Positions 21,502-35,759 of a DNA stretch of 40,283 nt are shown one piece after another. Made by a program: the position numbers and the translations under genes. The stretch comes from a virus (lineage: Duplodnaviria > Heunggongvirae > Uroviricota > Caudoviricetes). Location of the stretch: positions 1 through 40,283 of IMG/VR virus record IMGVR_UViG_2909309443_000006; one strand, 5' to 3'. Position 1 is the stretch's first letter, and the number at the start of each line of letters is the position of its first letter. The notes under the pieces are model-generated. The model searched no databases and had not been told where the DNA came from. It worked only from the letters and a program-made list of their open reading frames with translations.

Positions 21502-21576
<75 letters not shown>

Positions 21577-21579
21577 ATA

Positions 21580-21655
<76 letters not shown>

Positions 21656-21657
21656 AC

Positions 21658-21734
21658 TGGCCCGCCACCGAGGACTCGAACCTCGCACACTCAACTTAAA
21701 GGGTTGACGCTCTTTCCTGATGAACTGGTGACGG
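21658..21734 (-). tRNA. tRNA-like gene with non-canonical anticodon loop (CCUUUAA, C at position 33); possibly degenerate tRNA-Lys
   Basis: 77 nt cloverleaf foldable (acceptor with one G-U, T-stem CGAGG/CCUCG, T-loop UUCGAGU, CCA encoded) but position 8 is C and U33 is replaced by C. Confidence 0.45.
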
Positions 21735-21735
21735 T

Positions 21736-21811
21736 TGGTGGCCCTTGCTGGATTTGAACCAGCGACCTGGCGATTATGAGTCGCTCGCTCTCACCACTGA
21801 GCTAAAGGGCC
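21736..21811 (-). tRNA. tRNA with CAU anticodon, ileX/ileZ-like (tRNA-Ile2; Met not excluded)
   Basis: 76 nt; GGCCCUUUAGCUCAGUGGUGAGAGC...CUCAUAA...GGUUCAAAUCC...CCA; resembles E. coli ileX as remembered. Confidence 0.8.
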
Positions 21812-27306: not shown

Positions 27307-27508
27307 AGATTATCCAGTGACGATAATCGAGGCTGAGGGCTTTCTTAACCTCGTATCCGCGCCTGCGGTAGTTATGAATTAGCCATTCGGCCTGTTCTTC
27401 AGTACATGGTGGGTGTTGGTACCAGTCGGTTTTAAATGCGTGTGAACGCCGCCCGTGCCGGATGGCAAGGTCGGTATCAGAATTGTGAAATTTGTTTTTG
27501 TGCGCCAT
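27236..27508 (-). CDS. Hypothetical protein
   Basis: 90 aa from ATG at 27508, weak SD; overlaps the annotated start region of the downstream gene. Confidence 0.3.
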   Translation of the reverse strand: MAHKNKFHNSDTDLAIRHGRRSHAFKTDWYQHPPCTEEQAEWLIHNYRRRGYEVKKALSLDYRHWIIYVRLPYSERPPRPSRTFQQRIWR

Positions 27509-27582
27509 CGGTTGTCTCTGCTGGCGCAGCAGGTGCCAGTTGTTCAGGCTGGCGTGCGAATTGTAAACCAGAATGCCAGGAA

Positions 27583-27609
27583 AAAACAAAACCCGCCGAA
27601 GCGGGTTTT
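27583..27609. terminator. Intrinsic terminator downstream of the Doc-family gene
   Basis: Hairpin AAACCCGC-CGAA-GCGGGTTT with T-runs on both strands. Confidence 0.55.
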
Positions 27610-27623
27610 CATTGGAAGCACCT

Positions 27624-28109
27624 TTAGTTTTGCTGTTCTATTTTAAGCTTGATAGTTTCATACAAAACAATAGTTGCGCCTGTTTTACATAATTCCCGGC
27701 TGTCATACGCGCGAGACCAATAACACAACCAGTTCTCGAGATCTTCTCGAGTATAGGTTTTGCAGGCCAGTCCCTCTGCCATTTCCACGATTTCATCGCC
27801 TGGTGCTGTTAACTCATAGCCATTCAACAACAAGAAGACGTAACCAGCCATCATAGCTGTTCGTTTGTTCGCATTAGCAAACGGATGATTCTGAATCAGA
27901 CTTTCAATCAATACCGATGCCAGTACAAACATGTCATTAGTCTGTTCATACCATCGAACCATGCTGGGACGGGCCTGAGAAGAACTTAAGTTATCTGGAC
28001 TCAGAACACCAACGGGCTCATCTGGCGTCTGTAATTCAATTAGGGAACGATTGATTTCAACAAGATCATCAACCGTAAGGTAATGCACTCCTTCAACAAT
28101 CTCAGCCAT
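27624..28109 (-). CDS. Fic/Doc-family protein (Doc-like toxin)
   Basis: 161 aa from ATG at 28109; motif HPFANANKRTA fits the Doc signature H-x-F-x-(D/N)-(A/G)-N-K-R. Confidence 0.7.
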   Translation of the reverse strand: MAEIVEGVHYLTVDDLVEINRSLIELQTPDEPVGVLSPDNLSSSQARPSMVRWYEQTNDMFVLASVLIESLIQNHPFANANKRTAMMAGYVFLLLNGYELTAPGDEIVEMAEGLACKTYTREDLENWLCYWSRAYDSRELCKTGATIVLYETIKLKIEQQN

Positions 28110-28127
28110 AGAGCACAATACCCATCA

Positions 28128-28307
28128 TTACACTTTTGAAAGTTCTTCCATGGCTTTCTCATAACGAGAAAAACCGAAATCAAAAGCATTTTTCACTTGT
28201 TCACGATGTGCGCAGTTTTCATCAATCGCTGGGCGAGGGACTGCCACAACGCTTTTATCGCGAGGCGGAATACTCAACCGCGTGTGTTTTTTGAGTGGGC
28301 AGCTCAT
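28128..28307 (-). CDS. Small protein upstream of Doc, putative cognate antitoxin
   Basis: 59 aa from ATG at 28307 with AAGGA SD; ends 19 nt upstream of the Doc start; no family recognised. Confidence 0.45.
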   Translation of the reverse strand: MSCPLKKHTRLSIPPRDKSVVAVPRPAIDENCAHREQVKNAFDFGFSRYEKAMEELSKV

Positions 28308-28432
28308 ACTAATGAGTCCTTTTGTTTTCCGATTATTGGCAAAGCCATGCACCAAATTTGATGCAAAATAGATCTGTTTGAGATCCTTAGGATAGTCTAA
28401 TGGTAGCTAAAATTACAACCTCATTATGCGAC

Positions 28433-28454
28433 GAAAAACCCGCCGAAGCGGGTT
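28433..28454 (-). terminator. Intrinsic terminator downstream of hok
   Basis: Hairpin AACCCGC-CGAA-GCGGGTT followed by a T-run on the minus strand; same stem sequence as the Doc terminator. Confidence 0.5.
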
Positions 28455-28522: not shown

Positions 28523-28678
28523 TTACTCCTCAGGTTCGTAAGCTGTGAAGACAGCGACCTCCGTCTGGCCGGTTCGGATTCGTACCTCGCAGAGGTCTTT
28601 CCTCGTTACCAGTGCCGTCACTATGACGGTTAAACAGATGACGATAAGGGCGATTAACATCGCCTTTTGCTGCTTCAT
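28523..28678 (-). CDS. hok: Hok/Gef family type I toxin (HokD/RelF-like)
   Basis: 51 aa MKQQKAMLIALIVICLTVIVTALVTRKDLCEVRIRTGQTEVAVFTAYEPEE; AAGGAG SD. Confidence 0.85.
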   Translation of the reverse strand: MKQQKAMLIALIVICLTVIVTALVTRKDLCEVRIRTGQTEVAVFTAYEPEE

Positions 28679-28735
28679 AGCCTGCTTCTCCTTGCCTTTC
28701 GGCACGTAAGAGGCTAACCTACATTTGTGAGACAT
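28523..28735 (-). CDS. mok: Mok (overlapping reading frame that couples hok translation)
   Basis: 70 aa ORF from ATG at 28735 in frame with and containing hok, as in hok/sok loci. Confidence 0.5.
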   Translation of the reverse strand: MSHKCRLASYVPKGKEKQAMKQQKAMLIALIVICLTVIVTALVTRKDLCEVRIRTGQTEVAVFTAYEPEE

Positions 28736-28969
28736 AGATTGAGCCTCAGATTAATGTTAAGCGTCTTGCAGGACGCGTAATGTTAACTGGGGCTTTTCTC
28801 TATCTGCCTTTTGGTGTTCATGCCTGAGGCAGATAGCCTCAAGCACCCGCAGCAATTCTACTTAACTCCCCTTTCACTGCAAACCGTTTTTATCCCCAGC
28901 GGCAAATCGAATACACAACAAGTGCTGCCGCCATTGCAATTCCTGTCGTTGTGAATGCCTCCGGCCAGG

Positions 28970-35700: not shown

Positions 35701-35759
35701 TTTTCTGGTGGCGTTTGGCGGTATCAGTTTTACTCCGTGACTGCTCTGCCGTCCTTTTT
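35701..35759 (+). ncRNA. dicF: DicF-like small RNA (antisense regulator of ftsZ in Qin-type prophages)
   Basis: uuucuggugg cguuuggcgg uaucaguuuu acuccgugac ugcucugccg uccuuuuu, ending in a U-run, about 160 nt upstream of dicB; matches K-12 DicF as remembered. Confidence 0.65.

Follow-up and report, generated by a model that had tools for sequence, protein, structure and literature searches.

What keeps a Doc toxin in check when the gene in front of it matches no recognised antitoxin family? This question is raised by IMG/VR virus record IMGVR_UViG_2909309443_000006 (Caudoviricetes), of which positions 1 to 40,283, the whole stretch of DNA analysed, are called the window here. On its minus strand, a gene for a 'hypothetical' protein of 59 residues lies directly ahead of a gene for a death-on-curing (Doc) protein of 161 residues. 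An earlier note, made from the letters of the window without database searches, had read the two as a type II toxin-antitoxin cassette and had suspected a new fold in the antitoxin. Our analysis makes it probable that the pair is a self-contained, horizontally mobile type II Doc cassette (a moron), in which a minimal antitoxin of 59 residues neutralises Doc by its C-terminal helix. Judged by sequence, it is a type II toxin-antitoxin system of the same kind as Phd-Doc, with an antitoxin in which no DNA-binding domain is detectable.

The toxin is a Doc protein

The downstream gene (28109..27624, minus strand, stop codon included; RefSeq WP_000818167.1) encodes 161 residues and matches TIGR01550 at 128.5 bits (cutoff 38.65), PF02661 at 6.6e-12 and 46.6 bits (cutoff 24) and, over its full length, PHROG 577 'Doc-like toxin' at 1.8e-51. 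Its closest solved structure is the Doc of Enterococcus faecalis (EFDoc; PDB 9vzc_A, 4.7e-13), and P1 Doc (3k33) is remote (5.6e-5 over 66 residues). The Doc-type Fic motif HPFANANKRTA at residues 75-85 of the translation (27887..27855, minus strand) fits the definition HxFx(D/N)(A/G)NKR (PMC13034048). Its HPFANANKR part at residues 75-83 is intact, with a lysine where AMPylating Fic proteins have a glycine, and the motif with the Lys-Arg of Doc kinases is invariant among 32 homologues. The earlier note had picked out this frame and its motif as Doc-type Fic and had proposed a profile search of it; the frame is present as described, PF02661 was matched above cutoff, and the family and structure matches above bear the call out. 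The RefSeq name already assigned is 'death-on-curing family toxin', and the protein is by all these comparisons unambiguously an ordinary, already annotated Doc.

The clade of this toxin comprises at least 240 clusters at 90% identity. The best 120 of them are all at least 64% identical to it and mostly 150-166 residues long (a few are partial), and every one with a source name comes from Enterobacterales. P1 Doc and EFDoc lack the C-terminal tail of about 20 residues that this clade has (residues about 140-161; window 27624-27690). The tail is poorly conserved in sequence, and its end alternates in hydrophobicity in most genera (IKLKIE, IRII, VKVTIE, IKINID), which is suggestive of a beta-strand.

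The partner is a conserved gene of a small family

The upstream gene (28307..28128, minus strand, stop codon included; RefSeq WP_001277774.1, 'hypothetical protein') is an open reading frame (ORF) of 59 codons that starts with ATG. It has the good ribosome-binding site that the earlier note had ascribed to it: a Shine-Dalgarno sequence AAGGA is read at 28321..28317 (minus strand), 9 nt 5' of the ATG, and GAGG or AGG stands at the matching position in 13 other genera. We take this start to be correct because the sequence becomes conserved among genera at the ATG and its ribosome-binding site; on the same ground, a 75-residue reading from an in-frame TTG at 28355 was rejected.

The ORF is under purifying selection. 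Compared with 12 orthologues from other genera, the proportion of nonsynonymous differences (pN) is 0.15-0.26 against 0.68-0.90 for synonymous differences (pS), with synonymous sites saturated, and the ratio of the two substitution rates (dN/dS) is 0.10-0.15 where computable. Differences at codon positions 1, 2 and 3 number 200, 117 and 415 in these 12 genera-level comparisons.

Over its full length, the protein falls into PHROG 2208 ('unknown function'; 6.9e-41). It has no match in Pfam or NCBIfam (E<=1), in PADLOC or among PDB sequences, in agreement with the earlier note, which had recognised no antitoxin family in it. Direct reading of the sequence also finds no [ST]xxxE[GN], the inhibitory helix motif of FicA/YhfG-type proteins that, in work of Engel et al. 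from 2012, reportedly defines class I Fic antitoxins. Fifteen protein clusters were collected by a word-indexed search, while searching 1.84 billion representative proteins exhaustively with a profile gave 38 matches at E<=1e-3, nearly all of 47-62 residues. The family consensus is MxxAxxKxxRLxIPxRDKxxVAxPxPAxG..HxxQVxNAFxxGFxRYEKAxEELSKV, in which I13, P14 and R16 are nearly invariant and the C-terminal helix region is the best-conserved part. A literature search by WP_001277774 and WP_000818167 found no paper naming either accession.

The small gene is linked to Doc

A species scan, with one genome per species and a 12-sequence subset of the 41-sequence family alignment as query, found 13 loci with the small gene in 10 genera (Kluyvera, Serratia, Citrobacter, Hafnia, Rosenbergiella, Proteus, Morganella, Yersinia, Providencia and Xenorhabdus). 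In all 13, a Doc that shares 64-74% identity with that of the window follows 3-10 nt downstream, and in two metagenomic contigs with a small protein about 45% identical, a Doc of 52-55% identity follows after 5 nt. Checked from the toxin side, a member of the family lies 0-10 nt upstream of Doc in 4 of 4 cases (Lonsdalea, Arsenophonus, Rahnella and Salmonella). In the phage collection, exactly three records contain the small gene (Salmonella phage SW-37 and Pseudomonas phages Sirocco and LPPA56); the same three hold the closest Doc matches (about 60% identity), and both genes are adjacent in each of them. The two-gene module with the small gene first, as the earlier note had it, recurs in all these 13 loci, 4 loci and 3 phages. 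The contexts of the pair are unrelated (a lambdoid early region, a Mu-like tail module, a place beside cas3, and one between a PAP2 phosphatase and a formate/nitrite transporter gene), and no third conserved gene accompanies it across the loci compared.

Some of the loci are decayed. In Proteus penneri ATCC 33519, Doc is frameshifted into pieces of 97 and 71 residues (locus L009, 3184-3671), and in Providencia sp. Me31A it carries a 1-nt deletion (locus L012, about 585-590); the small gene is intact in both. An intact Doc with a broken small gene was not seen among the loci compared. This direction of decay fits what would be expected of a toxin and its antidote, with sequencing errors in draft assemblies as another possible source of the breaks.

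Two further arrangements may be recorded. In Lonsdalea quercina, the cassette is lodged in the tail module of a Mu-like prophage, flanked by the tape-measure (PhageMin_Tail) and DNA-circulation genes (L028, 1312-1968), an unusual site for a moron. On one metagenomic contig (L017, 1192-1920), a second Fic-domain protein of 242 residues begins 50 nt past Doc, and its N-terminal part is 31% identical to the Doc of the window.

A predicted Doc-binding helix in the partner

The AlphaFold2 (AF2) model of the 59-residue protein, built on the 41-sequence family alignment, has a mean predicted local distance difference test score (pLDDT) of 82. Residues 1-33 have no secondary structure, with pLDDT about 80 over residues 11-30, and the rest forms one helix, residues 34-57, with pLDDT 94-96 in the last two 10-residue blocks. 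A fold search of the model against BFVD gave nothing below E=5, an expected result because the model is a single helix. As modelled, the protein is built like an antitoxin that is intrinsically disordered until it folds on its toxin.

The helix was compared with the AbrB-type Doc antitoxins found in phage records, namely EFPhd of E. faecalis and the 'addiction module antitoxin' of a Staphylococcus SPbeta-like phage. EFPhd has 79 residues (its numbering was confirmed by His54, Lys56 and Lys57), and in the 9VZC crystal only residues 52-79 are ordered, as a bent helix that inserts into Doc (PMC13034048). Using hhalign, residues 28-56 of the 59-residue family align with residues 52-77 of the EFPhd family, gapless over 26 columns (P=0.0041). 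None of 300 column-shuffled EFPhd alignments reaches the score of 19.9 (mean 9.4, standard deviation 2.0, maximum 18.8), and the reversed EFPhd alignment scores 11.5. Moreover, the 26 residues from the nearly invariant His34 to the C-terminus equal in number those from His54 to Lys79 of EFPhd. Nothing N-terminal of residue 28 is aligned by hhalign between the two families.

The predicted Doc-binding helix is encoded by codons 34-59 and the stop codon (28128..28208, minus strand; HREQVKNAFDFGFSRYEKAMEELSKV), a segment to which the AF2 model, the hhalign result and conservation point. Its likeness to the EFPhd helix is suggestive of either homology or convergence of a Doc-binding helix and is not proof of it. 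The suspected new fold did not hold up: the model consists of one helix and an unstructured N-terminal half, and the helix resembles the Doc-neutralising helix of AbrB-type Doc antitoxins. On these predictions, the protein is a new minimal antitoxin family, not a new fold.

Proposed mechanism

In the mechanism we propose, Doc, as expected from its family membership, would be a Doc-type Fic kinase that arrests translation by phosphorylating EF-Tu. The C-terminal 26 residues of the partner would fold on Doc as an amphipathic helix, the counterpart of the 'Phd-C' Doc-binding helix of Phd and of AbrB-type Doc antitoxins, and would neutralise the toxin by direct binding. The proline-rich N-terminal 33 residues with the conserved RLxIPxRDK, in which profile searches and AF2 give no recognisable DNA-binding fold, would most probably stabilise the otherwise labile helix or its contact with Doc, add further contacts, or govern how fast the antitoxin is turned over. 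Tight spacing of the two genes, together with a ribosome-binding site of Doc inside the last antitoxin codons, would keep the antitoxin in excess. The cassette would have been inserted at the terminator hairpin of hokD, now duplicated on either side of it.

A short helix is known to be sufficient for neutralisation of Doc, which is why we propose the 59-residue protein as a minimal antitoxin. A 22-residue C-terminal peptide of Phd binds Salmonella Doc with picomolar affinity, neutralises it in vitro and in vivo and rescues growth (PMC9207808). Phd-C is a modular neutralising element, antitoxins that consist of the neutralisation domain alone exist, and, with SUMO as its only fusion partner, the Phd-C of a PanA antitoxin neutralises its cognate Doc (PMC10440598).

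Several observations weigh against this proposal. The likeness of the helix to EFPhd is weak, at 15% identity and an HHsuite probability of 8%. The profile check against Phd/YefM suggested in the earlier note turned out negative for the partner, with no match to PF02604 and, against P1 Phd, an hhalign result that is not significant (P=0.059 over 8 columns); a C-terminal alignment to P1 Phd made by eye (FASLFDTLDSTNKELVNR) was dropped, being unsupported by hhalign. The AF2 model of Doc from 32 close homologues reaches a pLDDT of only 50, because the alignment is shallow, which is too low for viewing the binding groove, and a Foldseek search of this model against PDB gave matches no better than noise. 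In the 129-nt leader (28308-28436), a search turned up no consensus sigma-70 promoter. In the NetFlax study, an isolated Phd-C was able to neutralise only when a tag stabilised it (PMC10440598).

The family is also not strictly tied to Doc. A clear member of 50 residues (P0031, E=2e-8) is an orphan without Doc in the early operon of a lambdoid prophage (L021/L022, 2501-2653), where it and the upstream DUF1187 gene overlap by ATGA and a terminator follows it directly; the three weakest family matches are likewise not beside Doc. Each of these Doc-less members might be a remnant, a false positive or an anti-Doc factor encoded by the phage. Opposite the orphan are TM2 and Hok genes, and a search of complete E. 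coli genomes for the orphan gene found no match.

Cassette layout and cargo slot

The two genes are small, adjacent and co-directional with the 59-residue gene first, which is the layout of a type II toxin-antitoxin system. They are separated by a spacer of 18 nt as read from the sequence (28110..28127, minus strand), so that the adjacency given in the earlier note stands and its length of 19 nt does not. An intrinsic terminator begins 14 nt past the stop codon of doc (27609..27588, minus strand), with a G+C-rich stem of 9 bp, a UUCG loop and then a U-tract (GUUUUGUUUUUU), and it is the strong hairpin that the note had seen. The AT-rich composition that it had also remarked is found as a GC content of 0.41-0.45 over the cassette versus 0.50-0.57 in the flanks on both sides. 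RefSeq calls a 63-residue 'hypothetical protein' on the plus strand (27455-27646) that crosses the terminator hairpin into the 3' end of doc, and a homologous ORF is named 'Mobile element protein' in related phages; the plus-strand ORF is probably a spurious call.

The neighbourhood is a Qin/lambda-like early-right region, with the minus-strand order hokD, 59-residue gene, Doc, a small hypothetical gene, DUF968 (ydfU-like), RusA, Q, a Ser/Thr kinase and a PP2C phosphatase. The kilobase around the cassette is 100% identical to chromosomes of enterotoxigenic E. coli (ETEC) type, for example that of O6:H16 strain 2014EL-1346-6, and 125 of 5426 complete E. coli genomes (about 2%) contain the entire cassette. 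Directly upstream of it lie the hokD toxin gene and an Rfam match to sok of 121.6 bits (28523-28678 and 28673-28848, both minus strand), and type I and type II toxin-antitoxin systems therefore stand side by side. Elsewhere in the window, Rfam detects the small RNA DicF (35703-35754, plus strand, 70.8 bits) and three tRNA genes (21505-21811, minus strand); both features fit a Qin-like lambdoid prophage.

The claim that the cassette is an insertion is corroborated by two related phages. In phage Evi the same position is empty, with a single hairpin and no cargo (L002, 2501-2654), and in phage vB_EcoS-689R5 the slot is filled by other cargo, a gene of 393 nt (L003, 2501-3319). The hok terminator hairpin AACCCGCCGAAGCGGGTT brackets the cargo in both filled versions. 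Its copies in the window are at 27590-27607, within the cassette terminator, and at 28437-28454 (minus strand), where alignment with Evi and 689R5 places the hokD terminator and the right edge of the insert; the hairpin of the cassette terminator is identical to the hok terminator hairpin of the empty site. The bracketing hairpins, the empty site and the alternative cargo together indicate that the 847-bp unit is a moron in a reusable cargo slot, and it shows the marks of one, namely insertion relative to related phages, deviant base composition and a terminator of its own. The slot at the hokD hairpin looks like a recombination hotspot for morons. The earlier note had placed the cassette where K-12 Qin carries relBE. 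The neighbourhood is right and the slot is not: the K-12 Qin order is relB-relE-hokD-rem-ydfU-Q, with relBE upstream of hokD, while the cassette is downstream of hokD, between it and the gene in the position of rem.

This setting bears on the role of the module. It is possible, and compatible with the mechanism proposed above, that the pair mainly serves abortive-infection defence of the lysogen against other phages and not prophage maintenance, with the orphan copies acting as anti-Doc counter-defence. The location in a prophage cargo slot with presence/absence and alternative-cargo polymorphism, the occurrence of the pair in several temperate phages and the orphan embedded in a phage early operon point in this direction, and toxin-antitoxin systems are increasingly tied to phage defence (PMC10440598). 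However, no PADLOC match rises above noise, and chromosomal copies exist outside prophages too.

Expression and role of the small protein

Upstream of the small gene, the leader and promoter region of the cassette (28308..28436, minus strand) contains palindromes at 28348-28365 and 28366-28379 (inverted repeats I3 and I7). In the Providencia and Morganella homologues, a promoter TTGACT-N17-CATTAT is present, the spacer of which is a near-perfect 20-bp palindrome AATGTAACTTAACTTACATT (L014, 2904-2932; also L010, L012, L013 and L016) and a candidate operator. Between genera the palindromes upstream of the small gene are unrelated while the N-terminal motif is conserved, which argues against the motif reading DNA.

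For translation, the last codons of the small gene in most genera, AAG GTx TAA, form AAGGT, a likely ribosome-binding site of Doc. This agrees with a putative translational coupling, and the double constraint may partly explain the invariance of the C-terminal Ser-Lys-Val. In the window (28128-28136) the Lys codon is AAA and Doc lacks a good ribosome-binding site, the spacer offering no strong one either.

The palindromes bring up a second explanation, in which the small protein is a complete autoregulating antitoxin: RLxIPxRDK-VVAV would form a beta-ribbon DNA-binding element on dimerisation or on binding of Doc and repress the promoter at the upstream palindrome, as Phd and EFPhd do. The near invariance of I13, P14 and R16, the pLDDT of about 80 over residues 11-30 despite the absence of assigned secondary structure and the presence of palindromes both upstream in the window and within the Providencia/Morganella promoter would suit such a regulator, and the R-[LI]-x-I-P of the family may resemble the 'RIP/RLP' strand of AbrB/MazE antitoxins. 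We nevertheless find it doubtful. No known DNA-binding fold of an antitoxin is as small as 33 residues; searches of Pfam and NCBIfam gave no match to PF04014 (AbrB), PF02604 (YefM/Phd) or ribbon-helix-helix proteins; hhalign covers only the C-terminal helix against the AbrB-type family; and the palindromes differ wholly between genera despite the conserved motif.

A further idea, which we think unlikely, adds to the free-standing Doc-neutralising helix a second linear motif, RLxIPxRDK, with a possible function of its own. It might extend into the active site of Doc or to the surface that binds EF-Tu, or might act as a degron or sensor that frees Doc on phage infection, and Doc-less orphan copies in early operons of other prophages would be anti-Doc factors that disarm host Doc defence. 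The related notion that RDKSVVA is a pseudosubstrate mimicking the EF-Tu loop GGRTVGA is retained as no more than a low-probability speculation, Ser19 not being conserved in the family.

It is quite improbable that the small protein is instead a co-transcribed accessory factor (a regulator, a chaperone or a trigger sensor) and Doc is harmless or controlled otherwise. The lack of an antitoxin-family match and the orphan without Doc are what such a factor might leave behind, whereas the pair keeps its order and tight adjacency across at least 14 genera and unrelated contexts without a third conserved gene, the helix resembles a known Doc-binding helix, decayed loci have a broken toxin and a kept small gene, and the catalytic motif of Doc is intact and invariant. 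Finally, a chance reading frame in the doc leader, which the shortness of an ORF often skipped by gene callers could suggest (15 clusters versus at least 240 for the toxin), is refuted for practical purposes by the purifying selection measured on it (dN/dS about 0.1 with saturated synonymous sites), its fixed length and conserved ribosome-binding site and the 38 members of the same size.

Significance and comparison with known systems

The preferred reading, a minimal antitoxin acting through its C-terminal helix, gives a candidate function to a small protein that is called 'hypothetical' in RefSeq and of 'unknown function' in PHROGs, and that is carried by the roughly 2% of complete E. coli genomes counted above as well as by many further Enterobacterales. 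Should the reading be borne out, the protein would exemplify an antitoxin naturally pared down to its neutralising element, in support of the modular 'linear neutralisation motif' model of antitoxin evolution, and would offer a compact natural template of 26 residues for Doc inhibitors. What is known of Doc toxins is unchanged and the concept is unsurprising; the use lies mainly in annotation and in a natural minimal Doc inhibitor.

Both proteins are full-length members of PHROG families, the small one of PHROG 2208 and the toxin of PHROG 577, of which PHROG 2208 is listed without function and without a link to Doc. Among Doc systems, Phd-Doc of phage P1 is likewise a two-gene operon with the antitoxin first, has a Doc-type Fic motif and is carried by a temperate phage. 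Its antitoxin neutralises by a C-terminal helix, a likeness that we predict for the 59-residue partner. In contrast, the toxin of the window is 35 residues longer and only a remote match (5.6e-5), and the partner lacks the N-terminal YefM/Phd DNA-binding domain. The Phd-Doc of Salmonella Typhimurium (PMC9207808) was considered as a member of the 59-residue family and rejected, as it has a P1-like Phd of 73 residues.

A different comparison is offered by relBE-hokD of K-12 Qin. Both it and the pair of the window are type II toxin-antitoxin cassettes beside hokD in the early-right region of a Qin-like prophage, but RelE is an RNase while the toxin here is a predicted Doc kinase, and the two cassettes lie on opposite sides of hokD.

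The neutralisation-domain-only antitoxins and the Phd-C of PanA antitoxins from the NetFlax study (PMC10440598) embody the concept proposed for the partner, a short linear helical element that suffices to neutralise Doc and may be joined to varied N-terminal domains or to none. Unlike the isolated Phd-C, which required a SUMO tag, the predicted element here is naturally free-standing and has a conserved short N-terminal motif of its own.

The closest solved toxin, EFDoc, belongs to the systems with AbrB/MazE-type Doc antitoxins (EFPhd-EFDoc in 9VZC, the TasA-TasB 'MazE-Doc' composites and the Staphylococcus SPbeta-like pair). The last 26 residues of the 59-residue family align without gaps to His54-Lys79 of EFPhd, with the conserved histidine on His54. 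The difference from EFPhd and TasA is at the other end, where the 59-residue protein has 33 proline-rich residues in place of about 51 folded ones and lacks the AbrB swapped-hairpin domain. In summary, by profile search and alignment the partner falls outside both the Phd/YefM and the AbrB-type antitoxins, in an uncharacterised family, and it appears to share with the AbrB-type the C-terminal Doc-binding helix.

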